A DNA stretch of 64,000 nt from Acidobacteriota bacterium (GCA_963664705.1 OY761556.1:960001-1024000); one strand, 5' to 3'; counted from the stretch's first letter, positions 8,028 through 22,282 are shown. Notes: generated by a model not told the origin, from the letters alone. Numbers and translations are program-made.

Positions 8028-9062
8028 TTATAGCCGGACGGTATCCTTCCCCTTCTGATTTCCCCTTGAAATCCGGCTGCCCAGCAGATTCAGGCAGAGC
8101 AGCGTTACAAACACCATACCCAGCGGCAGCAGGTTCCACCAGAAATCCGTCAGCACGCGTGCGTCCTTCAGATTCTTCAGCATGGATCCCCAGGATTCTC
8201 CCGCATCATGAAACCCGATGTTTAGGAAAGAGAGGACAACCTCACCCAACAGGAATATGGGAGCGGCCACGACAAGCTGCGAGAGGATAAAGGGGAGAAG
8301 ACCGGGAAACATGTGCCGGCGGAAAATGTGCCATGGAGAAGCGCCAAGCGAATGGGCCGCTTCCACGAAGACGGAATTTCTGAGCTGCAGGATGAGACCG
8401 CGAATGCCGCGCGCCATGGGTGGCCATGCCACGGCGGCAATTGTCCCGACTATCAGAAGCAGGTTTTGCATGAAGGGCATTTTGGCGGGCAGAAAGGCGC
8501 GCAGGGAAAGCACGATGTAGAGGGCCGGCAGCGCCAGCACAAATTCCGAGAAGCGCATCAGGAGTGAATCGATCCAACCGCCGAAAAGCCCGGCCAGTGC
8601 TCCGATGGAAATGCCCAGCGCGGAGTAGAGCAGCAGCCCGAGCAGCATGACGAGAAGCGAAGTCCTGGTTCCCGCCAATACCCGTGCCAGAACGTCGCGC
8701 CCGAAATCATCGGTGCCGGCCGGATAGTAATAGGGCGGCTGGCTTCTTCCCAGGAGATGGCAATTCATGGGAATCAAACCCAGGAGCCGGTAGGAGTATC
8801 CGGAGTAGAAGAACTGCAGAGGATAGGTCTGCTCCGTGTTTTCCTTGTAGCGCGTATCGAGCGGATCCTTCAATTCCATCCGATAGACAAACGGTACCGT
8901 CAGTGCGGTTTGATTGAAGAAGTGCATCCGGTTGGGAGGCTGGAAAAACTGTTCCAGGTTTTGCATCCCCGGCGGATTGGAGGAGAGGAAGTCGGAAAAG
9001 ATGGAAACCAGCACCAGCAGAAGCACGAATCCCGCGGAGAGCCTGAAAGTCAGCGATTTCAT
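8028..9062 (-). CDS. dppC: peptide ABC transporter permease, DppC/OppC type
   Basis: GTDDFGRDVLAR and FVEAAHSLGAS (EAA loop). Start MKSLTF at 9062 overlaps the upstream stop (ATGA). Confidence 0.85.
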   Translation of the reverse strand: MKSLTFRLSAGFVLLLVLVSIFSDFLSSNPPGMQNLEQFFQPPNRMHFFNQTALTVPFVYRMELKDPLDTRYKENTEQTYPLQFFYSGYSYRLLGLIPMNCHLLGRSQPPYYYPAGTDDFGRDVLARVLAGTRTSLLVMLLGLLLYSALGISIGALAGLFGGWIDSLLMRFSEFVLALPALYIVLSLRAFLPAKMPFMQNLLLIVGTIAAVAWPPMARGIRGLILQLRNSVFVEAAHSLGASPWHIFRRHMFPGLLPFILSQLVVAAPIFLLGEVVLSFLNIGFHDAGESWGSMLKNLKDARVLTDFWWNLLPLGMVFVTLLCLNLLGSRISRGNQKGKDTVRL

Positions 9063-10054
9063 CGTATGCCTTTCCGCATCGCGGGACGCGTTCTGGGATC
9101 CAGCGCCAGCATCGCCGTGTCCGCCAGCAGATTTCCCAGGACAAGGAGAAGACTGCTTCCCAGGACGCATCCGGCCAGCAGGAACAGATCGCGGTTGAAG
9201 AGCGCGTCATAGGTGATCTGTCCGAGTCCGGGCCACGAGAAGATGACTTCCAGGACGAGGCTTCCGCTGAGGATTCCCCCGAGCATCGGCCCTGTGATTG
9301 AGAGCACGGGGTTGAGCCCCGGGCGCAGCATGTAATTCAGAAAAATCCGCGAATTTCCCAGGCCTCTGGCTCGTGCGCAGCGCAGGTACAATAAATTGTC
9401 GTGGCTCTGCATGGCGGCGTATTGAATCCGTTCTATATAGGCGAGAACGGGAATGGTCAGGCAGAGCACCGGCAAACACAGGTGGTGGAGCCGATCGATT
9501 GTCCAGTGCAGGATGCCGATCGGCTGATCGGCCAGCGAGTTCATGCCCCCCAGCGGGAACCAGTGCGTGTGCGCGGCAAAGAGTAGCGCCGACAGTCCCA
9601 GTAGAAGGGAAGGGAGTGAAAGTGCGATCGTGGAAAACAGGCTCAGCAGTTTTCCCGGCGCGCGTCTCTCAAACAGGGCGTGAATGGTGCCGGCAAAAAG
9701 CCCGCCGCCGAAGCCGAGAATCAAAGCCGGAATCCCCATCCAGAGAGTGTTGGCCAGGGCGCCGGTGACTACGGAGAAAACGGGGCGCTGGTAGAAGAGG
9801 GATTGTCCCAGGTCCAGGCGCAGAAGCCTGCCGAACCAGCGCGCAAACTGAATGTAGAACGGCGCGTCCAGTCCATATTTATGCCGGAGCTGGCTTACCG
9901 CTTCCTTCTGGATCGATGCATCGACCAGGTGCGTGCTGAAGAAGTCCCCGGGAATAACTGCGGAGAGCCAGAAGGTAAGGAAGGCAACGGCAAAGGAAAG
10001 CAGCAGGAACTGAGCGATTCGTTTCAATAGGAAGGATGAAGTCCCGGTCCGCAT
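9059..10054 (-). CDS. dppB: peptide ABC transporter permease, DppB/OppB type
   Basis: YGLDAP, DLGQS, ARARGL, EVIFSWPGLG and LDPR motifs. Confidence 0.88.
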   Translation of the reverse strand: MRTGTSSFLLKRIAQFLLLSFAVAFLTFWLSAVIPGDFFSTHLVDASIQKEAVSQLRHKYGLDAPFYIQFARWFGRLLRLDLGQSLFYQRPVFSVVTGALANTLWMGIPALILGFGGGLFAGTIHALFERRAPGKLLSLFSTIALSLPSLLLGLSALLFAAHTHWFPLGGMNSLADQPIGILHWTIDRLHHLCLPVLCLTIPVLAYIERIQYAAMQSHDNLLYLRCARARGLGNSRIFLNYMLRPGLNPVLSITGPMLGGILSGSLVLEVIFSWPGLGQITYDALFNRDLFLLAGCVLGSSLLLVLGNLLADTAMLALDPRTRPAMRKGIR

Positions 10055-10323
10055 CTGTTTTTGCCAATGGCGGCATCTGTTCTGTCCGGGATGCCGGCAC
10101 GCTCCGATTTTTCGTAATTTGCCCGAATTGAAACTCCCATTGTACTAGAAAGCCGTGATTTTCTATAATGGGCTGCCCTTGAATCAACCCCTCGCTTGCA
10201 TCTGTAGTTCCCTCGGAGTGAGGGCGCCCTTTTGAATTTAGACGCGCGATAGCCGTTGGTCTGTGTAACTTCTAAAAATTAGTGTCTTTGCAGTGGCCTG
10301 CCACCATTTGTCAGGGAGCGTCT

Positions 10324-13300
10324 ATGAAGGCAATGACCAAGCACCTCAAGGATGGCTTCAAACTGAATGATCGCTACCAAATTGAAGAAATGCTGGGGAT
10401 TCAGGACATAGGACAGCTTTATCGCTGCAGCGATCGCGCCACGGGGCGGGGTCGGGCGAGATTGCGGATTCTTTTCGGCGAGTCGCTTGGAGTAGCGGAT
10501 ACAGCGGCTATGAGCGGAGCCTTATCGCTGCTTCGCAGATTGCAGCACCCGAATCTGGGGCGCGTCTTGGATTATGGAATCATTAAGGGGTCTCAAGATC
10601 TGTTTGTCGTTCAGGAATGGGTGGATGGCAAGGATATATGGGTTGGAACCGAGGATGTGGAATTTGAAGAGCTGTTGAGTATTTTGATCGATGTCGTTCA
10701 GTCTGTGCATTACTTGCATACACGCGGACTGGTTCACGGCTGTTTGAATTCCTCGAATATCATCCTGGCCAAGAATGGGAAGGGCACGAGGCCAAAGCTG
10801 TTGGATTTCGGCCTGGTGCGAAGCCTTCCGCAGCATGGAGGCAGCAGACTAGGGAATCCCGTGCACTTGGCTCCAGAGCTTTTGTTGGGTGGAGCCGTCA
10901 CCCAAAGCTCCGATCTGTATTCTCTGGGAATCCTGATTTATCAGTTGTTGACGCGCCGGCTTCCTTTCGAAGATGTTGACCCCGGTTTTCTGGTGGAAAA
11001 GCGCCTGCAGGTAAACATCGATCTGAGGCCGATAGGGCGTCTTAAGAATGGCGCCGTATTGAAGGAGATGTTGTGCAATCTGCTGGAAAGAGATGCGGAT
11101 AAACGATCCGGATCCAGTGAGGGCGTCTTACGGGGGTTGATAGAAGTACTTGGACGCGATACATCACGCCGGAATGCCAGGGATTTGCGAAACCTGTTCT
11201 CCTCATCGCGATTCGTCGGCAGGGACAACGAGCAGAGTCTTCTCAAGAAGTGCGCTAGCCAGGTGGAGGTGAACGGGCGAGGGTGGACCGTGTTTGTATC
11301 CGGAGAAGGAGGTTTGGGGAAGAGCAGGCTTTTGGAGGAATTTTCAAGCTGGGCCCGTTTGGAAGGCTGGCGGGTAATTGAAGGAGCCTGCGATACGCGC
11401 CACCAGGAGCCTTACGGGCCCTACCGGCAGATTCTGGCTCAGACGGAATCCATGAGTGGAGAATCCATATTCCGTTTTGAGAATACGTCACGGTCACAGG
11501 AAATGAGATCCTTTGAACCATCTCCTGAGTTTGCTGCCGGCCAGTTCCGGGATCTTCTGACCCGGGAGCTTGTCCGACGGTTGAGCGTGTGCCCAACCTT
11601 GCTTTTACTGCATGACTTTCATTTATCTGATGAGGCTACCAGTACTGTTCTGGACTATCTGAGTTCGGACATTCAGACGCACCCGATATTGATGTGCGTG
11701 AGTCTGAGATCCTGCGAGGACGCAGGTGGAGGAATTAACCGCGCCATAGAGCAGGCTCTGAGGCAGCAGCGGGGCGAGGTTTTGAACCTTGAGCCTCTGG
11801 TTGAAGGTAGTGTAGGTGAGCTTGTGGCCGGGATTACAGGCGATGCCAGGCTTAAAGGTACCCTGGGATCGTGGATGTATAACAATATAGGAGGAAACCC
11901 ATTCTTTATTGAGGAGATGTTGAAGCATCTGGTGGAGCAGGGATTGCTGCGTTGTGAATTGGATCGATTCCGGTTCAGGAATAGGGATTTGCAGAGATTG
12001 GAAGTGCCTGAAACGATTGGAGCGGTACTGCAGCGTCGACTTGTGCACCTGTCTTCAGCAGCGGGAAATCTGGCAAACTGGCTCGCCTTATTTCACCGGC
12101 CGATTACCAAAAGCCTCCTGACATCGATTTTGGAGTGGGAGGATGCGGAGGTAGCCAAAGCTTTGCAGGAGCTGAGGGAACGGCAGTTGGTGCGGATTGA
12201 AATGGGCGATGCGTTTGAAGTTATTGAGTTAGGCCACGTTCTCTTTGCAGAAGTCATTCGAGGGAATTTGCCGAAGGCTAAGCGCTTGAGGATGCATAGA
12301 AAGATAGCCGAGGTTCTGGAGCGGGAATATGGATGCGAAGGGAATCTCCAGGAATTGGCAATGCATGCAATGGAAGGGCGGACGGGGGTCAAGTCTGTCC
12401 GATATGCGCTGACATTGGCGACTCAGTCCCATGCTGAATTTGCCCACGAAAAAGCACTGCAATGCTATGAATATGTGTTTCGTCATCGAGGCGACCTGAC
12501 GGAGGCCGACCTTTGCCAAGCCGCCATCGAAGCCAGCGATACAATGTTTGCACTGGGAATTCCGACCCAAGCTATCAGGCTTTTGAAAAGAGAGATGAAT
12601 TGGTGCGGCAATATCGATCAGGAATTAAGGGCGGGATTGTTGATGCAATTCGCGGTTGCATATAAGCACTTAGGAGATTTGATTCGAAAGGATACATTTT
12701 GTAAAAAGGGGCTTCATTACCTTCGCCATTCACGTTTTGATAAGAATCCAACAAAAGCATTGCTATGGGCCGAACTGGCTTTCAACGCTATGCTACGATC
12801 TAATCCAAAACTTGGACTAAGGTTGTTAAAAAAAGCCCAATCTGCCTGTCCTGAATCCAATTCAGGGATTCTGGCTGGCAGGATACAAAACCTCGCGGCA
12901 TCTCTTCATCGAGTGGCATGCAACTTCCAAAAGGCTCTCATTGCAGGCGAGAAAGCGGTTAGTATTTTTACCAAGTGTGATAGTTCCTTTCTAGTTTGCT
13001 CCGCCTATTCAACTTTGGGCTTGGTTTTAATGGGCCTAGGAAGATTTTCACTTGCCCTAAGAATGCATCAAGATGCTGTCACGGAAAGCGAAAAGAATCG
13101 CTCGGTCGCGCTAAGGGCTCAAGCATCTGCCAATCTACTAGAGTGTTTGTGCAAAATGGGGCGAATGACAGAAGCTGCGGAGTTGGCCGAAAATGCCAGC
13201 GAATATATTTATGGGCTACAGAATCCATCCATAAGAGATGCTTTTATTGTCATCATGGCCGAAATTAAGCTAAACCTTTGCGATTACAGTGGAGCGCTTG

Positions 13301-15693
13301 ATCTGATCAGGCAGTTGGATGAAAAGAGAATTGGGCGTTCAGCCGTGTATATTTCGGGCCATGCTCATTATGTCGCTGCCAGTGCTTTTTTCTATTTGGG
13401 AGATTTTGATTCAGCGATTCATCACATTGAAACAATTTTTTCTGTTCAACGGGCAGAAGCTCCTTTTTATGAGAGAGAGTTGGCCGCTGCGCTGCAGGCC
13501 CGCATTATGTCCGAACGAGGCCTCGCTGATCGTGCAATCAAGCAATTGCGCTCACTTGACAAAACGGTTACCCGAAAAAAGTGGCCTTATCAGATGTGCA
13601 TCATAAAGCTTCACCTAGCTGAAATAATGCTTCGAAAACAGCTCTATGATACTGCCAAAAAATTAGCAAAGAATGCGTTGCGATTGGCAAAGGGTATGCA
13701 TTCCGAATCCCTAATTGGGCAAAGTTACCTTTTGCTTGGGAGTGCATACTCCAGACTTTTTCACTCTAATGATAAGGACAGATTGTATCTTGGTTATGCG
13801 ATAGAGAACCTGCAATTTGTATGCAACTCAAGCGCCTCCGTTTCCAATGAAACTGTTTGGCGAGCCTGTGCAGAATTGAGTTTGATATATGAAGAGTTGG
13901 CAAATTCGAGAAAAAGCGTCGATTATGCGGAAAAAGCGCATAATTGTTTATCTAAAATCGAAAGACGATTGTCGCAGAGGATGCAGGATTCTTATATAAA
14001 CGCATTCGGACGAAATTACCTGAAATCCGAAGTGCTTCGACTTGCTGATCGGCGTGGAAGCTGTCAAACACAAGATAATTCGGGGCCTGGGCTAATTGCG
14101 AGTATCGAGGGTAGAATACTGTTGCGAGTCAGCGCGGCAGTAAACTCAATTCCGGACATAAACCGACTTTTGGAACGAATATTGGATCAGTTGATCCAGG
14201 CTGCAGGACTGGAGCGGGCTTTTGCTTTTCTTGCTGACAGCTCAAACCGAGATCTTTGTTTGGCCAAAGGCAGAAATCACCTAAGAGAGACTATTCAGAA
14301 CGCGGGAGCAACAATCGACACCATTGTTGAGGAGGTGTTTGAACGAGGTCTGCCTATGGTTAGCTCTAATGCACAAATCGATCCGAGATTTAAGGACAAG
14401 GTAAACATGTTGGGGCATCAAGGCGTACTCCTTTGTGCTCCACTAAGAGTAGCCGACAGGATCCTTGGTGTTCTTTATGCAGATCATTCATTGCCAGAGG
14501 AAAACCTTAGCGAGTCAGTGTTTAACCTTTTTGCCGCCTTTTGCAATCTTGCTGGGATAGCTATTGATAACACAATTGTGCATCAGCAATTGGCTCGGGA
14601 AAAGTCGGAGTTGGAAGAGTATTTTCATCTCGCTCGTGGTGAATACCCCGAAATTGTTGGAAAAAGTGCCGTGGTGGAGTCATTGCGTGATCGAATAGGT
14701 ATGGCAGCCCAATCGCCGCTTGATATTTTGGTTATTGGAGAAAGTGGTACGGGGAAGGAACTTGTTGCCAAAGCCATTCATAGCTCAGGAAATAGAAAAA
14801 ATGGGAAATTTATAGCAGTCGATTGTGGCTCGCTTTCTGACACGCTAGCAGAGGCAGAGTTATTTGGCTATCGCAAAGGGGCGTTTACAGGGGCGTTCGA
14901 AAATCGGCCAGGGCTACTTGAGGCAGCTAACGGCGGGATCTTATTTCTGGATGAAATATCGAACATGCCGTTGAAAACACAACCAAAATTATTGCGCGTT
15001 CTTCAGGAAAGGGAAGTTAGGAGAATTGGTGAAACCATAACAAGAAAAGTGGATTTTCAGGTAGTGTCGGCAACCAACAGAGATATTCTACTGGATGTAC
15101 GAGAGGGGAAATTTCGAGAGGATCTATATCATCGTCTGAGAGGAATGGAAATACGCGTGCCCCCATTAAGGGATCGTTTGGGCGACATCCAACTGTTGGT
15201 TGACTGGCATTTGTCGGATATTAACCGAGCAACTAGCAAGAAAAGGAAGTTTTCACAAGAGGCGAGGGAGATCTTATCTAGATATCACTATCCCGGAAAT
15301 ATACGCGAACTCAAGAACGTTGTTGCTGATGCCTATTATTCAGCAAAGGGCGGGCAGATAAGCGTTGGCGATTTGCCAGTCGAGGTCAGGGGAATGCTTT
15401 CGGAAGAGTTCAGTGCCGACAATGGCATTGCTTCGCGGTTATATATTCAAATTGCTGAAGGACGCGGAACCTTTGAAGAATTGGTAAAGAAGCCGTTCAT
15501 TGATCGCCAGTTAAGCCCACCAATACTTCGAAGCATTATTGAGAGGGCGTTGAGGGAGTCAGCGGGGAGCTACAGAAAGGCATTTTCGATTTTAAAAATC
15601 CCCGGGCGGCAGTATTCGCTGACTATCAGATTTTTAAAGCATTATAAGTGCTATTTAAACTACCAGCAGTTCAGACAGCGCGAATATGATTAG
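10324..15693 (+). CDS. giant sigma54 enhancer-binding protein: Ser/Thr pseudokinase - P-loop ATPase - TPR-like helical region - GAF - sigma54 AAA+ - C-terminal helical/HTH region
   Basis: Kinase fold (HPNL, DFG, APE, SDLYSLG); FVGR/GEGGLGKS/GGNPFF ATPase; long helical repeats; GAF (LCAPL...GVLYAD); GESGTGKE, GAFTGA, FLDEI and YPGNIREL. Start at ATG 10324 after GGAG. Confidence 0.9.
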   Translation: MKAMTKHLKDGFKLNDRYQIEEMLGIQDIGQLYRCSDRATGRGRARLRILFGESLGVADTAAMSGALSLLRRLQHPNLGRVLDYGIIKGSQDLFVVQEWVDGKDIWVGTEDVEFEELLSILIDVVQSVHYLHTRGLVHGCLNSSNIILAKNGKGTRPKLLDFGLVRSLPQHGGSRLGNPVHLAPELLLGGAVTQSSDLYSLGILIYQLLTRRLPFEDVDPGFLVEKRLQVNIDLRPIGRLKNGAVLKEMLCNLLERDADKRSGSSEGVLRGLIEVLGRDTSRRNARDLRNLFSSSRFVGRDNEQSLLKKCASQVEVNGRGWTVFVSGEGGLGKSRLLEEFSSWARLEGWRVIEGACDTRHQEPYGPYRQILAQTESMSGESIFRFENTSRSQEMRSFEPSPEFAAGQFRDLLTRELVRRLSVCPTLLLLHDFHLSDEATSTVLDYLSSDIQTHPILMCVSLRSCEDAGGGINRAIEQALRQQRGEVLNLEPLVEGSVGELVAGITGDARLKGTLGSWMYNNIGGNPFFIEEMLKHLVEQGLLRCELDRFRFRNRDLQRLEVPETIGAVLQRRLVHLSSAAGNLANWLALFHRPITKSLLTSILEWEDAEVAKALQELRERQLVRIEMGDAFEVIELGHVLFAEVIRGNLPKAKRLRMHRKIAEVLEREYGCEGNLQELAMHAMEGRTGVKSVRYALTLATQSHAEFAHEKALQCYEYVFRHRGDLTEADLCQAAIEASDTMFALGIPTQAIRLLKREMNWCGNIDQELRAGLLMQFAVAYKHLGDLIRKDTFCKKGLHYLRHSRFDKNPTKALLWAELAFNAMLRSNPKLGLRLLKKAQSACPESNSGILAGRIQNLAASLHRVACNFQKALIAGEKAVSIFTKCDSSFLVCSAYSTLGLVLMGLGRFSLALRMHQDAVTESEKNRSVALRAQASANLLECLCKMGRMTEAAELAENASEYIYGLQNPSIRDAFIVIMAEIKLNLCDYSGALDLIRQLDEKRIGRSAVYISGHAHYVAASAFFYLGDFDSAIHHIETIFSVQRAEAPFYERELAAALQARIMSERGLADRAIKQLRSLDKTVTRKKWPYQMCIIKLHLAEIMLRKQLYDTAKKLAKNALRLAKGMHSESLIGQSYLLLGSAYSRLFHSNDKDRLYLGYAIENLQFVCNSSASVSNETVWRACAELSLIYEELANSRKSVDYAEKAHNCLSKIERRLSQRMQDSYINAFGRNYLKSEVLRLADRRGSCQTQDNSGPGLIASIEGRILLRVSAAVNSIPDINRLLERILDQLIQAAGLERAFAFLADSSNRDLCLAKGRNHLRETIQNAGATIDTIVEEVFERGLPMVSSNAQIDPRFKDKVNMLGHQGVLLCAPLRVADRILGVLYADHSLPEENLSESVFNLFAAFCNLAGIAIDNTIVHQQLAREKSELEEYFHLARGEYPEIVGKSAVVESLRDRIGMAAQSPLDILVIGESGTGKELVAKAIHSSGNRKNGKFIAVDCGSLSDTLAEAELFGYRKGAFTGAFENRPGLLEAANGGILFLDEISNMPLKTQPKLLRVLQEREVRRIGETITRKVDFQVVSATNRDILLDVREGKFREDLYHRLRGMEIRVPPLRDRLGDIQLLVDWHLSDINRATSKKRKFSQEAREILSRYHYPGNIRELKNVVADAYYSAKGGQISVGDLPVEVRGMLSEEFSADNGIASRLYIQIAEGRGTFEELVKKPFIDRQLSPPILRSIIERALRESAGSYRKAFSILKIPGRQYSLTIRFLKHYKCYLNYQQFRQREYD

Positions 15694-15704
15694 TCTTTCG
15701 ATGC

Positions 15705-18095
15705 CTATGCGCGATAAAAATCGATAACGTTTGTATCCAATGTGAATTTTTGAAGAATGCCCGATCGAAGGTTTTCCTGTGCAGAATGCAAAAGTGATAA
15801 AATTGTAGCTCCATCTTTGGGGTAGAATGAAATTCCTATTTGGCAGTCAATAGAAAAACCCTGTCCAATCGTCGGGCGGTTGCCTCTTATCTGCTGTTTC
15901 AATCGTTGAGCGCAACGTAATGCCTGGTCATCCCTGACGCCTGGGAGAAAGACAACAAATCCCTGAGCCCCATAGCAAACAAGAATGTCACTTTCTCGCA
16001 GTTCAGGCTTAATGCTATCCGCAATTTTTTTGAAAACTGAATCAGCCAAATTAGAACCAAAATTCCGTACAATCTGGGGAAGATTTCTGATCTCAATATA
16101 TATTAGCGAAATTGGTGTTCTGTTTTCAGCGGCTGCAGATATCAGTTGCGGGCCGACTGCGGCTAAATATGAGATTCTGCAAAGGCCGGTGACTGGATCA
16201 ATAGTATCACTAGAGGTTTTACTATCCTCGTTGGCTGCATCTGCGAAAAGAGGCGCAATAACATTTGCCACGGTTTGCAGGACTGCAAGGTGGTTCTCAG
16301 TGTAGGAGATTGGATCTTGTCCGTAGAGTGAGAGCGTTCCAAGGCATTCGTCTTCTTTGGTTATGGGCACGACAAGTGTATCGCTAAATGAGAACTGTGA
16401 TTCCCCTGGCGTTCCCTGGAAATCGAGCGCCGGCCCCGTGTTGATCATTGGGCGCTTATGTGCCGCCACCCACCCGCTGATTCCCTTTCCAACCTCCATT
16501 TCTCTGTTTTGAAGTGATTCTGAGAACATTCCGCTAACATATGTAGCCGAAATTTTGTTTTCGGAATTGCATATGAAGAAGGCGCAGGTGGAATATGGGA
16601 CCAAAGCTTTCAGTCGCTGCGCCAGGATGGAAAGAACATCGTTTAGGCGCAAGTGCCCGGAGATTGTACTGCAAAGCTCCGTTAATTGAATTAGCTCGGC
16701 TGGTATGTCCAAACTTGACTTGGCGGTTTTGGTGGCGATATCTGGCTCACTTGTTTCCGAATACTTTCGGAATGACAACTGCGGTGCATTCTCGGATTCC
16801 TTTAGTGCCGCTTGTTCCAGTTCATCAATGTGTTTTGTGAAAATGTCGACAAGGTGTGGATCATAGACCGTCCCCGCCTGATTGCGCAAAATCTCAGCCG
16901 CTTCATCTTTGCCAATAGGCAGTTTATAGGGACGAGAGAACCGGATTGCATCAAAAGCGTCAGAAATTGCAAGAATCCTTGCCCCCAAGGGAATATCCTC
17001 ACCCTTTAGGCCATCCGGATATCCTAGTCCATCCCAGCGCTCATGATGTGAACGAACATATTTTGCCACAGGATATGGGAATCTTACTTGTTGAAGAATC
17101 TCATCTCCCGCAATGGAATGAACCTTGATCTTTTCAAATTCTTTTTTTGAAAGCCGTCCAGGTTTGTTTAGGATATAGTCGTCAATAGCAATCTTTCCTA
17201 TGTCATGAAGCAGCGATCCGGTTTCAATTGCTCGTAACTCATCTGGCTCCCTAATTCCACAAAGTTTAGCCAACCCCATCGCATAAATCTTTACTCGACG
17301 AATATGGCCATAGGTTGTTTGATCTTTTGCATCAACGGCAAGTGCTAATGATTCAACCGTGCGCAGGTACAATTGCTCTTGTTCTTTTAGATGGTCCTGC
17401 GCCTCTGCAACCCTGCTTTTATTGATCTGGTTCCATCCCCAAACAATGCCTATGATTGGTATCGCGGCGAATGCAGCCCAAGAGCCTAGCCATTGGTATA
17501 AAACAGCCATCACTGCAGCACACATTCCTGAAAGAGAGTAATCCATAGAGAGTGGGACACAAGTTTTGGCCCAAAATCTAAAGACACTTTCATCTGATGA
17601 CCATGCGATGGCAGTTGATGTGGAAATCGAGTTAAACAGGAAGAAGCTAAGAGTTAGAAGTGCGGCGGGAACAACAATATCAATTGGTTTGGCGCTGAAT
17701 TGGTGAATGCTTTGATAGATTGAACTGTAGATCCAAGCCCCACACGTGGTGCTTGCAACGTTAAATGCAACCCTATGGGCGTAGACTTTGGGCTTCTGTG
17801 AGACAATCGAGATAATGAGAATGTATACAAAAGTGCCAATAACACATGGTGCGGTTCCATATATCATGGCTATTGCCATGATATATGAATCACCTACTGT
17901 AATTGCAGCTTTGAAATGAGGCAGGTGCAGAAAACAAAAGATGGTAACAAGGGCAACCGCAAGGAGAATCAGCCATCGACTATCATATCCTCCTTTTGAG
18001 AGCTTAATGCCGGCCCAGAGCAATATAGGTATGGCTGAACAAACCAATAGACCTATATATAGCCTTAACTTTGATGGAAGATCTGCCCATGCCAT
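15705..18095 (-). CDS. multi-TM membrane sensor - HD-GYP phosphodiesterase - GAF - degenerate GGDEF
   Basis: About 220-aa hydrophobic N-terminus; intact DAKD, HDIGK and HHERWDGLGYPDGL; GAF (GKGISGWVA); GGDEF replaced by GAQGF. Confidence 0.9.
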   Translation of the reverse strand: MAWADLPSKLRLYIGLLVCSAIPILLWAGIKLSKGGYDSRWLILLAVALVTIFCFLHLPHFKAAITVGDSYIMAIAMIYGTAPCVIGTFVYILIISIVSQKPKVYAHRVAFNVASTTCGAWIYSSIYQSIHQFSAKPIDIVVPAALLTLSFFLFNSISTSTAIAWSSDESVFRFWAKTCVPLSMDYSLSGMCAAVMAVLYQWLGSWAAFAAIPIIGIVWGWNQINKSRVAEAQDHLKEQEQLYLRTVESLALAVDAKDQTTYGHIRRVKIYAMGLAKLCGIREPDELRAIETGSLLHDIGKIAIDDYILNKPGRLSKKEFEKIKVHSIAGDEILQQVRFPYPVAKYVRSHHERWDGLGYPDGLKGEDIPLGARILAISDAFDAIRFSRPYKLPIGKDEAAEILRNQAGTVYDPHLVDIFTKHIDELEQAALKESENAPQLSFRKYSETSEPDIATKTAKSSLDIPAELIQLTELCSTISGHLRLNDVLSILAQRLKALVPYSTCAFFICNSENKISATYVSGMFSESLQNREMEVGKGISGWVAAHKRPMINTGPALDFQGTPGESQFSFSDTLVVPITKEDECLGTLSLYGQDPISYTENHLAVLQTVANVIAPLFADAANEDSKTSSDTIDPVTGLCRISYLAAVGPQLISAAAENRTPISLIYIEIRNLPQIVRNFGSNLADSVFKKIADSIKPELRESDILVCYGAQGFVVFLPGVRDDQALRCAQRLKQQIRGNRPTIGQGFSIDCQIGISFYPKDGATILSLLHSAQENLRSGILQKFTLDTNVIDFYRA

Positions 18096-18161
18096 GATTA
18101 TCTTCTACTTAAATCAGTAGCCTACCAAATCATGTATCGGCAAAAAACCACCTAATCTTAA

Positions 18162-18192
18162 CCTGCAATTAGGGTTAAAACCTAATTGCAGG
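18162..18192 (-). terminator. perfect 12-bp hairpin between the peptide ORF and the HD-GYP gene
   Basis: CCTGCAATTAGG-GTTAAAA-CCTAATTGCAGG; a T6 run follows shortly downstream on the minus strand. Confidence 0.7.
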
Positions 18193-18235
18193 CCATTTAA
18201 TCAAATTCATCTAGTTTGCTGCTAGAATGAGAATA

Positions 18236-18298
18236 CTAGCCAACCCAAATAATCATAGGGGTTTCACGGGATTCGAGAATTTCGATATCGGTCTGCAT
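18236..18298 (-). CDS. putative 20-aa precursor peptide MQTDIEILESRETPMIIWVG
   Basis: GGAG RBS 5 nt before ATG; ends at TAG; acidic leader ending in LExxExP, then a hydrophobic Trp-containing hexapeptide; followed by hairpins; lies between an RRE-M50-HlyD gene and a membrane sensor. Below the ORF-track size cutoff. Confidence 0.75.
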   Translation of the reverse strand: MQTDIEILESRETPMIIWVG

Positions 18299-18341
18299 TT
18301 TATCTCCAAATATCTGAATGGGTTGTGTTTAAAAAAACAAC

Positions 18342-18356
18342 ACAATACTCTTGCCG
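18342..18356 (-). promoter_or_regulatory. possible sigma54 (-24/-12) promoter for the peptide ORF
   Basis: CGGCAAGAGTATTGT: correct GG-N10 spacing, but TTGT instead of TTGC; about 43 nt upstream of the ATG. Confidence 0.35.
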
Positions 18357-18359
18357 CTG

Positions 18360-18407
18360 TCACAGCCAGAGAATTGCACTCGCCATAGCAGTCTCCTCTT
18401 TAATCAT
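18360..18407 (-). CDS. possible second micro-peptide MIKEETAMASAILWL (or MASAILWL from 18386)
   Basis: AAGAGGAG lies 6 nt before ATG 18386, and there is an in-frame ATG at 18407. The C-terminal AILWL resembles MIIWV of the neighbouring peptide. Confidence 0.4.
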   Translation of the reverse strand: MIKEETAMASAILWL

Positions 18408-18742
18408 TGAATGAACATCCCTCTCTCGATATAGCTCGACCGATCCCAAAGACACCCCAAAAAACCAGGCGCCATTCGGGCCACTTCCAAAGCAATGCCA
18501 CTCACACCGGTTATGAAACCGATATGCAATACGTAAAACAAGCGCGGCTTACTTCTTCAGCTTCGCTCTTACTCAAATTGGGAAAAGCATTCAACCCACA
18601 CCCAAAAGGGCACGGCCTGAACACTCGTCAAGGTGAGAGAGCTATTCGAGAAATTGCTGATCACTCACCGCAACCAAGAACCAGGAGCTAGGTTTCCTGA
18701 TCCCCGGCATTTTACTGTACAACAGACTCTTTGATAAACCAG

Positions 18743-18772
18743 ACCGTAGCAGGGCTTACAGTCTAGTGTCAA
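18743..18772 (-). promoter_or_regulatory. sigma70-like promoter pointing toward the peptide ORFs
   Basis: TTGACA-N18-TACGGT with an extended -10 TG. Confidence 0.4.
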
Positions 18773-18869
18773 CAAAATTCTAATTTCTTTTAAAGTTTTC
18801 AGGCTTGTTGCCGACCGTTCCAGGACTAGGTTCGACGCCGTCTCCAAATCGCCCGTCATCCGCCAAATC

Positions 18870-21242
18870 CTAGGGCAGATATTCCCAGAACTCTGTCCGG
18901 AGCCATCGGATCGCCCGCCGGGAGGCGATCTCGTAAATGCTTCTCTTGCCGCAGCGTATCTTTCCGACTCCTGTCATCCCCGCGCGCAAACTGCCGTCCG
19001 GGTTTGGCAACTCCCCCTGAACCGTCACGGTCTTCTGGTTGCCGCCCGAGGTCGCAACCGGGGCAATGCTTCGCACATGCGCTTCATACCAGCGGCGGGG
19101 ATACCCGCGCACTTTTATCGTAATGGGATAGCCCAAATGGATGTCCCCAATTTCCTTCTCCGGAACCGGCATCTCGACAATCATGGTCGAATTGCTGACG
19201 ATTTCGCAGAAGACATTCCCCTTGTCGAGGAAATCGCCGATCCTGTTGTGCAGATACGAAGTCGCCACCGTCCCGTCAATGGGACTCCGGATCTTCATCA
19301 ATTCTACCTGGCGGTCCAGGATCCGGAGCTTCTCTTCAAGCTTGTCCACCTGCGATTCCACCGCCCGGATCGATTCCTTCCGTGCGCCCGCCAGCAGTAT
19401 CTTCAGTTCGCTATGCGCCTGCGCCAGTTCTTTCTTTTTGACGTCCCTGTTCCGCTCGATCTGCTCTTCGAGAACGCTTAATTGCCCTTTGGCCGCCGAA
19501 ACTTCCTTTTGCTGCACTTCATAGGCGGTCCGGTCTCTGTCTACTTCATTCCGCGGGATCAGCTGCGCCTTCAGCAGGTTCTGCGCCCGCTCATAATTCA
19601 ACCTGGCATTGGCAAGCTCCGCTTCTTTTTTGGCCATGGTGTCCCGAAGCACCGCCCGTTCCTGGTCAACCTTGCCGATGCTGGCCAGTTCCGCATTTTT
19701 GGTTTCGATCAGACTTCTGGCTTTCTCGATTTCCTCGGGCCGCGTTCCTGCATTCAACAAATCCAGCGAGGCCTTTTGCGCCTGCAGCTCGCCTTTGACA
19801 TCCTCATAGCTGTTCGACAGCTCGAGGTTTTCGATTTCCGCGAGTACATCACCCGCGCGCACCTGGCTCCCCTGTTCGACATAGATCTTCTTGAGATTGC
19901 CCAGAACTTCCGGCGTTACCGACACTCTCCTGGAGGCGAGCATCGTAAAATCGCCGGATACCTTCATTTCCCAGGGCAGAAAGCCGGCCAGCAGGACCAG
20001 GAGGAGCAGAACCAGGATCAGAGGATTTTTTCGAAAACGTACAATCACCGCTTTGGTCACCTTCCCGGAAGCAGCTACATTATCCCTGCTCGCGACTGGA
20101 ACCGTCATAAAAAAAAGCGCCGAGATCAAAACCACGCCCCACGACTGATATTCTTCCACAAACCAGGCGCCCAGCCTCTGAAACATCACCCAGATGATCA
20201 GCAGCGTAAACAGAGAAGACGCGCTTCCGTAAATAAAAAACAACCGCTTCTCTCTGCGGCTCAGCATCTGTTCAGCGGAAGAACGACTCCCGGTCAGCAG
20301 CGAAAGGAGCCGGTTTTTCACATAGGCAAGGGCCTTCGGTCGCAGGTTCGGCACTTCGATGAGATCGCTCAGGAAATAGTAGCCGTCCAAACGGATCAAT
20401 GGATTGAAGTTGAGAATGGTCTGAATCGCGTTGAATGCTATCGCGATCAGGCATATCCGGCTTGCAAGCGTTTCCGTCGCCAGGAGTCTCCAGCCAATCG
20501 TTGCGATGGCCCAGAGAATGACCTGCGCATAGGCGCCGGCAAGTGTGATCCGGATCCGTTCTCTCTTTTTCAGCAGCCAGGCATCACTGACATTGCAGTA
20601 GAAAGCCGGAATAAAATAGAGGATCAGGAACCCCATCTCGGTTACCTTGCCTCCAAAATGCTTGAGGGCAAGGCCGTGGGCAAACTCATGAATGGTCATG
20701 ATCGCAAAGATGACAACCAATGCCGTCGGGATGGAGGAAATGGTAAAAATGGCTCCCATCGAGAGAAACAGGGACTCGCTGTTTAGTATCGAAATGATGG
20801 CGGATACGAGCGCTGCGATCCACACCAGCGCTGAAAAGGCGGGGGCAAAGCAGAAGCGCAGCCTGCGCTCCAACCGGGTGAGAAGCTGGTCCGGGTTAAA
20901 GGCGTGGATTTTGATCGACAGCAGACTTCGGATGATCGTTCGTTTTCTTGCGGCCGCGCCGCTCAGCTTATTCCAGCAGTATGGGTGATCCAGGAGCAGC
21001 AGCGCCTGCAGTTTTCCCAGGAATTCCCGCAACTGCTCTTCCGTGACAGGCGTCTGGTGCTTCTCGGTGACCTGGGCCGCGATGGCAGGCAGATCATTCT
21101 GCCCGTTCAAAAGATCAAGAACGGAAGCCTGCACCGGCGTGAATCGATAAAAGCGCAGAGTAACCGGATCTTTTACAACGACACCGGCATTCTGTTCCGA
21201 ACGAATGTCCAGATCCGATCGCAGCTTCGCATGATTCGCCAT
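18870..21242 (-). CDS. PqqD/RRE-like domain - M50 (site-2) intramembrane metalloprotease - HlyD-type membrane fusion protein
   Basis: N-terminal winged-helix-like segment (VVKDPVTLRFYRF...LLNG...EFLGKLQALLLL); HEFAH zinc motif; NFNPLIRLDGYY; then lipoyl-like VEQGSQVRAGDVL, a coiled coil, IRSPIDG and LRAGMTG. Confidence 0.9.
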   Translation of the reverse strand: MANHAKLRSDLDIRSEQNAGVVVKDPVTLRFYRFTPVQASVLDLLNGQNDLPAIAAQVTEKHQTPVTEEQLREFLGKLQALLLLDHPYCWNKLSGAAARKRTIIRSLLSIKIHAFNPDQLLTRLERRLRFCFAPAFSALVWIAALVSAIISILNSESLFLSMGAIFTISSIPTALVVIFAIMTIHEFAHGLALKHFGGKVTEMGFLILYFIPAFYCNVSDAWLLKKRERIRITLAGAYAQVILWAIATIGWRLLATETLASRICLIAIAFNAIQTILNFNPLIRLDGYYFLSDLIEVPNLRPKALAYVKNRLLSLLTGSRSSAEQMLSRREKRLFFIYGSASSLFTLLIIWVMFQRLGAWFVEEYQSWGVVLISALFFMTVPVASRDNVAASGKVTKAVIVRFRKNPLILVLLLLVLLAGFLPWEMKVSGDFTMLASRRVSVTPEVLGNLKKIYVEQGSQVRAGDVLAEIENLELSNSYEDVKGELQAQKASLDLLNAGTRPEEIEKARSLIETKNAELASIGKVDQERAVLRDTMAKKEAELANARLNYERAQNLLKAQLIPRNEVDRDRTAYEVQQKEVSAAKGQLSVLEEQIERNRDVKKKELAQAHSELKILLAGARKESIRAVESQVDKLEEKLRILDRQVELMKIRSPIDGTVATSYLHNRIGDFLDKGNVFCEIVSNSTMIVEMPVPEKEIGDIHLGYPITIKVRGYPRRWYEAHVRSIAPVATSGGNQKTVTVQGELPNPDGSLRAGMTGVGKIRCGKRSIYEIASRRAIRWLRTEFWEYLP

Positions 21243-21292
21243 CTCGAGCCTCTGTACAGAGATACGGGGGCTAGATTTCAGTATGGATGCGC

Positions 21293-21321
21293 ATCATAGT
21301 GTTAGATGCGGGCAATTGCAA
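21293..21321 (-). promoter_or_regulatory. sigma70-like promoter of the RRE-M50-HlyD gene
   Basis: TTGCAA-N17-TATGAT on the minus strand. Confidence 0.55.
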
Positions 21322-21368
21322 TGGGAATGAATTCCTATTTCGGTCCCGCCGCGGGACGCAGCTTCAAA

Positions 21369-21397
21369 TTGACTGACCGGGTCGAGTGCTGTATAAA
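21369..21397 (+). promoter_or_regulatory. sigma70-like promoter of the FGE-domain lipoprotein gene
   Basis: TTGACT-N17-TATAAA. Confidence 0.6.
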
Positions 21398-21439
21398 GAT
21401 TGGTTCGAACTAATCTAGGAAAGCCGCAAAAGGAGAATT

Positions 21440-22282
21440 ATGCTATTCAAAAAAGGTATCTTGGTTTTCATGGTGCTGGCCGTGGCTGTTGCGTTGTGCG
21501 GTTGTGGAAAAAAGTCTGAAGAGTCGCAGGGAGAAACCGCCGCGCCCGCAAAAGCTGTGGTAAACCCGGGGGAAATGGTTTTGATTCCTGCCGGCGAATT
21601 CATAATGGGCAGCAATATCAAGGGTAGCGACGGCAAAGAAACCCTTGCCTTTCCGGAACACAAAATGAATTTGCCCGCCTACTGGATTGATAAATATGAA
21701 GTAACAAACTTCCAGATGCTCGATTTCGCCATTAAAGAAAAATATACCGGCGAAGGCGCCAAAGAGGGAAAAGACTGGAGACTCTTTGCTACTCCGGACA
21801 AAGCGCTGGTCCCCGTTCAATATGTCACCTTCAACGATGCCCAAGCGTACTGCAAGTCCGTAGGGAAGAGACTTCCTACGGAAGCCGAGTGGGAAAAAGC
21901 CGCGCGCGGTGCGGATGGGAAAGCCTATCCCTGGGGGAATGAATGGGTAGACGGCCGCAGCAATACCGCCGAAACCGGACTTCTGAAGCCCGCTAATGTG
22001 GGCGAGTACGACGACGTGAGCCAGTATGGTGCCCACGATATGCTGGGCAATGTGCGGGAATGGACTTCGACCCCGTTTGAACTCTATGCCGGAAATACCG
22101 CCAAAAACCCGGGCAAAGGACGCTTTGTTGTCCGCGGCCTGTCCCCGAACCACAAGGGCAAAATGGCTCACCTGTGGGATCGCGACGGATATCCCGCCGC
22201 ATTTCTTGGCGATGTAGGCTTCCGTTGCGCCAAGGATGCAACTCCGGAAGATGCCGCCAAGGCTGCCGCACCGGCCAAGTAA
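21440..22282 (+). CDS. FGE-sulfatase (SUMF1)-domain lipoprotein
   Basis: Lipobox LCGC; IPAGEFIMG, YEVTN, RLPTEAEWEKAARG, DMLGNVREW and GFRCA motifs. Confidence 0.88.
   Translation: MLFKKGILVFMVLAVAVALCGCGKKSEESQGETAAPAKAVVNPGEMVLIPAGEFIMGSNIKGSDGKETLAFPEHKMNLPAYWIDKYEVTNFQMLDFAIKEKYTGEGAKEGKDWRLFATPDKALVPVQYVTFNDAQAYCKSVGKRLPTEAEWEKAARGADGKAYPWGNEWVDGRSNTAETGLLKPANVGEYDDVSQYGAHDMLGNVREWTSTPFELYAGNTAKNPGKGRFVVRGLSPNHKGKMAHLWDRDGYPAAFLGDVGFRCAKDATPEDAAKAAAPAK

Follow-up and report, generated by a model that had tools for sequence, protein, structure and literature searches.

A conserved Acidobacteriota locus that probably couples short tryptophan peptides to cyclic di-GMP turnover through a predicted inward-facing receptor

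A 64,000-nt stretch of an Acidobacteriota genome (GCA_963664705.1, OY761556.1:960001-1024000; hereafter, the window) carries a cassette in which the genes for a protease fused to an export adaptor, two very short peptides, and a membrane-bound, predicted cyclic di-GMP (c-di-GMP) phosphodiesterase lie on one strand and converge on the gene of a giant sigma54 activator (Table 1). A first-pass annotation of the sequence had delineated the fusion gene, a 20-aa open reading frame (ORF), the HD-GYP gene, and the activator gene, all of which are found where it placed them, and had read them as an agr-like system in which one exported peptide is sensed from outside and the activator closes a transcriptional loop. 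We find that these four elements are conserved across one Acidobacteriota family and judge it moderately probable that they form a peptide-to-c-di-GMP system with an inward-facing receptor, in which Trp-containing peptides tune the HD-GYP phosphodiesterase. The 775-nt spacer between the fusion and receptor genes holds, in this order, a sigma70-type promoter candidate, an RNA hairpin, an 8-aa ORF, the 20-aa ORF, and a 12-bp hairpin.

Table 1. Features of the cassette and its immediate neighbors, numbered from the first nucleotide of the window
Feature	Position	Strand	Remarks
Giant sigma54 activator gene	10324..15693	+	1789 aa
MASE9-HD-GYP gene	15705..18095	-	796 aa; likely c-di-GMP phosphodiesterase and receptor for the peptides
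Perfect 12-bp hairpin between the precursor and receptor genes	18162..18192	-	
20-aa precursor ORF	18236..18298	-	MQTDIEILESRETPMIIWVG
Leaderless 8-aa micro-ORF, MASAILWL	18360..18386	-	Ribosome-binding site AGAGGAG at 18393-18399
Covarying RNA hairpin with invariant 5' flank, leader of the peptide genes	18559..18657	-	No Rfam match
Sigma70-type promoter candidate, peptide genes	18743..18772	-	TTGACA, 18 nt, extended -10
RRE-M50 protease-HlyD fusion gene	18870..21242	-	790 aa; likely leader peptidase and export adaptor
Sigma70-type promoter candidate, fusion gene	21293..21321	-	TTGCAA, 17 nt, TATGAT
OppB/OppC-type peptide ABC permeases, beside the activator	8028..10054	-	Candidate re-import route
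FGE-sulfatase-fold lipoprotein, divergent neighbor of the fusion gene	21440..22282	+	Possibly chromosomal context only

Orthologs of the fusion protein (53 to 74% identity) occur in 23 of 24 same-genus genomes, and the closest named relatives are from Acidobacteriota. The synteny is kept as well: the receptor gene lies 3' of the spacer in all 11 genus stretches of sufficient length, and the activator adjoins the HD-GYP gene in 9 of the 11 that reach past the spacer, the contigs of the other two ending first. In the family as a whole, the receptor gene was found in 38 of 51 genomes.

The 20-aa product, MQTDIEILESRETP-MIIWVG, consists of a conserved leader and a variable Trp-containing core, and its ORF is preceded by GGAG. 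When the intergenic DNA of the homologs was scanned for small ORFs with an LExRxxP leader, the strict leadered pattern was found 21 times in 17 of 24 spacers; six of the misses are at contig ends, and one spacer (L180) holds a divergent copy. The leader is acidic, 14 aa long, and fixed as MQT[DE]IE[IV]LExRE[TN]P, which agrees with its earlier assignment to the LExRxxP type recognized by RiPP recognition elements (RREs; RiPP, ribosomally synthesized and posttranslationally modified peptide). The core varies yet retains two hydrophobic residues and the Trp; it has no conserved Cys or Ser, and it ends in Thr in 5 of 19 distinct peptides, the peptide of the window ending in Gly. This peptide is not the only one at the locus, as had been supposed, but belongs to one of two classes. 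The second, leaderless class, represented by MASAILWL, shares the hydrophobic-hydrophobic-Trp motif and is the most widely conserved element: the 8-aa pattern occurs 21 times in 20 of the 24 family spacers, with a 10-aa form in one more (21 of 24 in total), and two of the spacers without it are at contig ends, while one (L050) is complete.

Both peptide ORFs are under codon-level selection. Nucleotide differences at codon positions 1, 2, and 3 number 111, 136, and 476 in the micro-ORF and 179, 136, and 942 in the leader, and random 780-nt genome windows gave micro-like ORFs in 7 of 3,000 cases and leader-like ORFs in none of 3,000. In held-out genomes of other genera, as many as five precursors stand in tandem, and micro-ORFs number up to two. 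No NCBIfam model covers the 20-aa peptide, nor does the protein collection searched contain its exact sequence. Longer starts of the micro-ORF (in-frame upstream extensions, 15 and 31 aa here) were rejected because they are unconserved and the ribosome-binding site precedes the short start.

The fusion protein is a likely leader peptidase and export adaptor. It contains the motifs HEFAH and NFNPLIRLDG, and HExxH and DG are intact in all 48 homologs listed. Residues 16 to 377 match the NCBIfam daptide intramembrane metalloprotease NF041824 with 220.8 bits, which is below the cut-off of 300, and a HlyD/membrane fusion protein match follows; the HlyD part is intact and fused in the orthologs (60 to 77% identity). 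In a model of residues 1 to 385 with a predicted local distance difference test (pLDDT) score of 93, the N-terminus forms three strands and three helices that match the RREs of TbiB1 and PqqD (Foldseek, target template modeling score of 0.69 to 0.77), and the M50 part matches the site-2 protease 3b4r and SpoIVFB, all of these matches having E-values above 0.001.

Two described systems come close to this protein. The daptide pathway (MpaA/MpaP; bioRxiv 10.1101/2023.03.08.531785) also has an N-terminal RRE fused to a site-2 protease, and its precursors are short, often present in several copies, and hydrophobic in the core, with a leader (ELExMEAP) resembling the xILExRExP found here. Unlike in that pathway, HlyD is fused to the protease here, a receptor gene follows, and there is no invariant C-terminal Thr; the daptide dehydrogenase, aminotransferase, DUF-RRE, and methyltransferase were not found among the scanned neighbors, which do include a PUA-SAM methyltransferase, the rest of the genome not having been searched. 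The M50-HlyD module beside a secondary SecA_DEAD (Kamneva et al. 2015, PMC4452313) likewise combines Peptidase_M50 with HlyD and no ATP-binding cassette (ABC) transporter, and a conjectural secretion role has been proposed for it. None of the SecA_DEAD, GAF-HlyD, and OEP genes of that module flanks the fusion gene in the window or the genus stretches, and the likely substrates here are peptides of 19 to 23 aa.

The 796-aa protein has the domain order MASE9-HD-GYP-GAF-degenerate GGDEF (PF20972, 28.4 bits; cut-off, 24.3). Its HD-GYP metal and GYP motifs (HD, HHExxDGxGYP) are intact. The GGDEF site reads YGAQGF and is degenerate in 11 of 11 aligned family sequences, all of which keep, five residues upstream, an RxxD (c-di-GMP) site; three S8-type relatives retain GGDEF. 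The first-pass view of this protein as the sensor holds, in that its membrane domain is the most likely peptide receptor. The same domain and architecture are found in reported MASE9-HD-GYP-GAF-GGDEF proteins (bioRxiv 10.1101/2021.11.05.467447), where MASE9 has eight predicted membrane segments and is predicted to bind its ligand within the membrane; that paper names no ligand, and the word "peptide" is absent from its main text. What we propose beyond this for MASE9 (an S-component fold, an inverted topology, and a link to Trp peptides) comes from the present analysis.

A MASE9 model built on 76 sequences (pLDDT, 93) resembles the S-components of energy-coupling factor (ECF) transporters, NikM (Z = 15.5; root mean square deviation [rmsd], 3.2; 187 residues aligned) and RibU (Z = 13.9; rmsd, 3.4; 161 aligned) among them. 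In a re-ranking of Foldseek's own hits, the 22 top structures are all ECF S-components (Z, 10.5 to 15.5; rmsd, 3.2 to 4.4; 153 to 188 aligned), and the first unrelated one has a Z of 8.6. A profile match to the S-component 4hzu_S (E = 0.028) maps loop 55-67 onto lid L1, and 9 of the 76 MASE9 members match PF07155. With NikM, CbiM, RibU, and FolT, the domain shares a six-helix core and an L1/L3/L5 lid, and an extra N-terminal helix aligns with NikM and CbiM. Unlike these S-components, MASE9 has an added C-terminal membrane helix, a predicted inverted orientation, and fused signaling domains; a search limited to the cassette found no genes for the transport partners EcfT and EcfAA'.

In ECF S-components, L1, L3, and L5 face outward, and L1 and L3 close the pocket (PMC4820897). 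In each of the 76 MASE9 sequences, L1, L3, and L5 together hold more Lys and Arg (mean, 7.2) than do the loops on the opposite side (mean, 1.7), and between the S-component core and the cytoplasmic HD-GYP domain there is an additional hydrophobic helix (206-221). From this we predict a pocket that opens to the cytoplasm, with the lid loops inside; such a pocket would explain how a leaderless peptide can be a ligand, and it calls for an importer of exported peptides. An oligopeptide importer is indeed linked to the cassette. Such an orientation makes the agr-like reading, with periplasmic binding of the exported core by the sensor, unlikely, and the leaderless 8-aa peptide has no route out. The agr system uses a cyclic thiolactone peptide made by AgrB and a histidine kinase receptor that binds it from outside, whereas the cassette has no AgrB or kinase match and the cores lack the conserved Cys or Ser. 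What speaks for the agr-like reading is the fusion of an export adaptor to the protease and the fact that S-component pockets normally open outward (PMC4820897).

That reading would also have the activator drive the peptide genes. Sigma54-like sites were found before the fusion gene in 0 of 15 upstream regions and in 1 of 22 spacers. A TTGACA followed by a TGn-TAnnnT-like element (the -10 read by eye) is instead present in 21 of 21 spacers, and similar sigma70-type elements precede the fusion gene in most of 15 regions, again by eye. In other lineages, sigma54-like sites are enriched before Trp-repeat S8 protease genes (13 of 28, versus 58 of 500 background windows), a point in favor of such a loop. 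The scans therefore leave the activator loop unsupported in this family and possible in others; we rejected it for this family, and consider agr-like sensing as a whole quite improbable.

The activator is a STAND-type protein of the order kinase-AAA_16-tetratricopeptide repeat (TPR)-GAF-sigma54, with intact Walker A and GAFTGA motifs. The catalytic loop of kinases usually reads HRD; here it reads HGC, lacks the catalytic Asp, and marks a pseudokinase. Among 14 sequences, the loop is HG[CADR] in the six RRE-M50-type ones that could be parsed and HND in one other relative, seven being unparsed. No FleQ-like motif was seen by eye before the AAA domain. The activator is a linked partner of the proposed switch. 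At the usual activator position in L036 (1-894), a reverse-transcriptase-like ORF, recognized by eye, stands beside the receptor gene.

Feedback looks RNA based, with riboswitches in relatives and a conserved hairpin here. In the hairpin, 92% of cells are paired and 10 of 21 pairs show compensatory changes; 0 of 500 shuffles attained this paired fraction, and slid controls reached 27 to 47%. The structure was drawn from the very sequences tested, and the covariation lies in the outer helices, the base being nearly invariant. With a model built on the hairpin, 32 of the 51 family genomes (5 genera) gave a single copy each; nine checked hits outside the training set are all neighbors of the fusion gene or of the genes for the peptides and receptor, and the model matched nothing in 81 of 83 stretches, S8-type loci included. 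Rfam gave no match at E-values up to 0.5 in positions 9500 to 22000 of the window and, hence, no c-di-GMP-I or -II riboswitch. In 2 of 15 related stretches (L099 and L206), c-di-GMP-I riboswitches at gathering level occupy the position of the hairpin. The invariant 5' flank could be a DNA operator. Small membrane-associated proteins behind c-di-GMP riboswitches in Clostridioides difficile (PMC13724677) offer a parallel; they are reported to act on sporulation, with no mention of a processing protease or an adjacent receptor. The hairpin after the 20-aa ORF had been called a terminator, a call that the terminator scan did not make.

To see the receptor outside this family, we took 60 of the 92 MASE9 matches in 301 genomes of the phylum and dropped one same-genus stretch, leaving 59 stretches picked by their MASE9 match alone. 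An S8 protease gene is present in 29 of the 59, in 25 cases with at least three xx[ILV][ILV]W repeats (18 of 38 genomes, 13 families), and in six stretches, an 8- to 10-aa micro-ORF of the type ...II/VVW (e.g., MKLIIWGE, MTPIVVWG) directly precedes a MASE9-HD-GYP gene. Four stretches combine the giant activator, an S8 gene, and MASE9-HD-GYP-GGDEF; that is, the same cassette with another peptide source replacing the fusion, and these S8 proteases have signal-peptide-like N-termini. As a control, 0 of 9 other HD-GYP genes of the genome under study have such ORFs or repeats nearby. One of the three RRE-M50 loci in which MASE9 scored, L206 of the Solibacteraceae (fusion at 37% identity), repeats the whole cassette independently: besides the fusion, receptor, and activator, it has a leadered ORF, two VIWI micro-ORFs, and two c-di-GMP-I riboswitches. 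The giant activator was found in only 5 of the 59 stretches: the Trp motif goes with MASE9 and not with the activator, and of sensor and protease, it is the sensor that it follows.

This recurrence bears on an explanation that we consider improbable, in which the cell secretes the unmodified peptides as a product (a surfactant, an antimicrobial, or a relic of the daptide kind), merely co-regulated with the c-di-GMP enzyme, and MASE9 senses a small molecule. The same Trp motif lies near MASE9 by way of three unrelated gene types (leadered ORFs, leaderless ORFs, and S8 tails), which such an explanation does not anticipate. Nor does it sit well with a survey of 80 RRE-M50 loci from many phyla, where small ORFs with an LExRxxP leader occur in 26 and, where MASE9 is missing, the cores are mostly long and polar and lack the motif. 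It gains from the closest characterized homolog of the fusion being a daptide leader peptidase, from the vitamins and metals that S-components bind, and from the many MASE9 genes with no Trp-peptide source within ~10 kb.

Further MASE9 loci were observed in passing. The genome under study (G000) encodes three S8 proteases with [AV][IL]LWGD tails, and the genes of two of them immediately precede that of a histidine kinase whose N-terminus resembles MASE9. That locus (L058:1-5450 and G000 C1 6890987-6894879, across the contig origin) comprises a family-5 peptide-binding protein, the two S8 genes (ILWGD/VLWGD tails), and the kinase and constitutes a second such system within the genome. The third S8 gene (G000 C1 4642708-4644666; VLWGD repeats) lies ~8 kb away from a nifA-nifHDK-like cluster, and no MASE9 gene was noticed in its vicinity. 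Proteins of ~450 to 500 aa that contain two MASE9 domains and seem to lack an output domain (L090, L092, and L094; protein hits P0001-P0028) adjoin pairs of W-repeat S8 genes. Stand-alone MASE9 proteins of ~210 to 320 aa directly after S8-W genes (L098:15243-18692, L122, L124, L133, and L134) are possible decoys or immunity-like binders. The MASE9-HD-GYP-GGDEF genes directly behind a 450- to 490-aa sigma54 regulator in L106, L110, L119, L121, L137, L140, and L141 have no Trp-peptide source within ~10 kb and possibly encode orphan receptors. On the protease side, L192 (11544-14717), from another family, presents a Trp-free version in which a MASE9-HD-GYP gene lies upstream of a 33-aa ORF (ELEIEEVEEVVAP leader, core AVVVTA) and then an M50-HlyD gene. 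A second HlyD gene adjoins distant homologs of the fusion, and in a recurrent second cassette (L184, L186-L190, and L194-L197), a HlyD gene and an RRE-M50-HlyD gene converge on a sigma54 regulator; a histidine kinase is present in most cases, and some gaps contain long repetitive ORFs.

A return route for an exported peptide may be provided by the Opp transporter. Opp genes are present in 6 of 6 micro-ORF loci, 2 of 53 other MASE9 stretches, and 1 of 76 other RRE-M50 loci. In 13 of the 14 family genomes that carry both on a single contig, no more than 20 kb separates the gene of the orthologous family-5 binding protein from that of the receptor, and 7 more genomes have the two on different contigs; the exception is the genome under study, where the ortholog lies elsewhere, directly before the S8-S8-MASE9-kinase locus.

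We propose that short hydrophobic Trp peptides would bind the cytoplasm-facing pocket of MASE9 and thereby tune the fused HD-GYP phosphodiesterase. The RRE would bind the xILExRExP leader, and the M50 protease would cut at the Pro or close to it and release a core, MIIWVG for example. The fused HlyD may then hand this core over to a TolC-type channel whose gene lies elsewhere (an outer membrane is present in the host, with 40 OEP matches), and the linked Opp transporter would return the core to the cytoplasm of neighboring cells, as in Phr/Rap, or, in lineages lacking Opp, simple partition into the membrane may serve. Leaderless MASAILWL would stay in the cell, where it would address the same pocket in cis, either as a competitor or as a ligand that fixes the set point, and c-di-GMP may feed back via the RxxD site of the dead GGDEF domain and the RNA leader. 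Export and re-import together with a cis-acting leaderless peptide fit better than agr-like sensing. It is tempting to go further and to regard MASE9 as an inverted ECF S-component peptide receptor fed by three interchangeable sources of Trp peptides (the RRE-M50-HlyD processor, S8 protease tails, and leaderless 8-aa genes in cis), Opp re-import as cell-to-cell control of c-di-GMP, and the hairpin as a new c-di-GMP-responsive element; we hold this wider reading only tentatively, as possible rather than probable.

A number of observations weigh against the proposal. Peptide binding, cleavage, and export are all predicted from sequence and model, and the inward orientation rests on charge bias and the model, while S-components can topple. 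MASE9 scored in only 3 of the 80 RRE-M50 loci, and the fusion would therefore be a general peptide machine that was recruited here; of the 59 MASE9 stretches, 30 lack an S8 gene, all lack M50, and about half have no visible peptide source. Within the family, the complete spacer of L050 contains the precursor and neither the micro-ORF nor the RNA motif, and in G234, the fusion is present with no peptides or receptor within 6.5 kb downstream. The leadered cores of L206 (SAVATGILE) and L192 have no Trp. The sensor did not track core type beyond kinship in a test of 10 loci that used the first peptide copy only and a crude core score (partial Mantel r = -0.12, P = 0.79, n = 10). Because the cassette encodes no pump, with neither an ABC ATPase nor an outer-membrane factor present in it, export by the fusion protein is a conjecture. 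The Opp binding protein was not found with the query used in 17 of the 38 receptor-bearing family genomes, several of which are 97 to 100% complete, so re-import is not universal, and the six loci with both Opp and a micro-ORF are kin, so that the Fisher P value for this association is overstated.

The gaps in Opp, the lack of a pump and of sensor-core co-variation, the inward-facing pocket, and the wide conservation of the leaderless ORF would all suit a cell-autonomous regulation, in which M50 frees the core into the inner leaflet, the core and MASAILWL bind MASE9 in the producing cell, and HlyD is retained for other substrates or for peptide disposal. We think this unlikely, given a HlyD domain that is kept intact and fused among the orthologs, S8 proteases with signal-peptide-like N-termini in place of the fusion, an importer linked in several lineages, and precursors amplified up to fivefold.

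The proposed inward-facing system has its closest counterpart in the Phr/Rap and other RRNPP systems, including the Eep-processed cCF10/iCF10. These work with short hydrophobic linear peptides, intramembrane processing, Opp re-import, a cytoplasmic read-out, and two peptides for one receptor, features that the proposed system would share. RRNPP receptors are soluble TPR proteins, and their precursors have a Sec-type signal peptide; here, TPRs are present in the adjacent activator, but the likely receptor sits in the membrane and joins a predicted S-component fold to a c-di-GMP enzyme, an RRE leader takes the place of the Sec signal, one peptide is leaderless, and the host has two membranes. 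The mode would resemble Phr/Rap, but by our comparison the locus does not belong with the daptides, the agr systems, or the SecA_DEAD module. Each component is known separately, while the combination and the ligand-receptor pair appear to be new; neither the system nor the pair was found described in the open literature searched.

The remaining neighbors are less telling. Those scanned are Opp permeases, the activator, HD-GYP, a formylglycine-generating enzyme (FGE)-fold lipoprotein, a PUA-SAM methyltransferase, a CCA-type enzyme, and a TPR protein. The earlier remark that no RiPP tailoring enzyme is present stands insofar as no classic one is among them; it needs qualifying for the FGE-fold lipoprotein, a constant neighbor in the genus that adjoins the fusion gene in 22 of the 23 stretches holding the ortholog. 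The C-terminal part of this lipoprotein lacks the Cys pair that true formylglycine enzymes have, and the protein could be context or a periplasmic partner that binds or modifies peptides. Elsewhere in the genome, four identical repeat copies (G000 C1 694227, 4155683, 4261598, and 4397041) are probably an insertion sequence, and two tRNA-SeC calls were made (G000 C1 1625651 and 3078215).

The locus shows that 8-codon genes can be under selection and adds a leader RNA without an Rfam match. It names a minimal candidate substrate for the pump-less M50-HlyD secretion module and gives a concrete candidate ligand, peptides of 6 to 8 residues, for the orphan sensor family MASE9, which 11,746 cluster representatives match. 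If the proposal is true, it would represent an undescribed kind of bacterial peptide signaling, with c-di-GMP as its output, in a two-membrane and largely uncultured phylum, and the binding fold of a transporter would have been reused upside down as a receptor.

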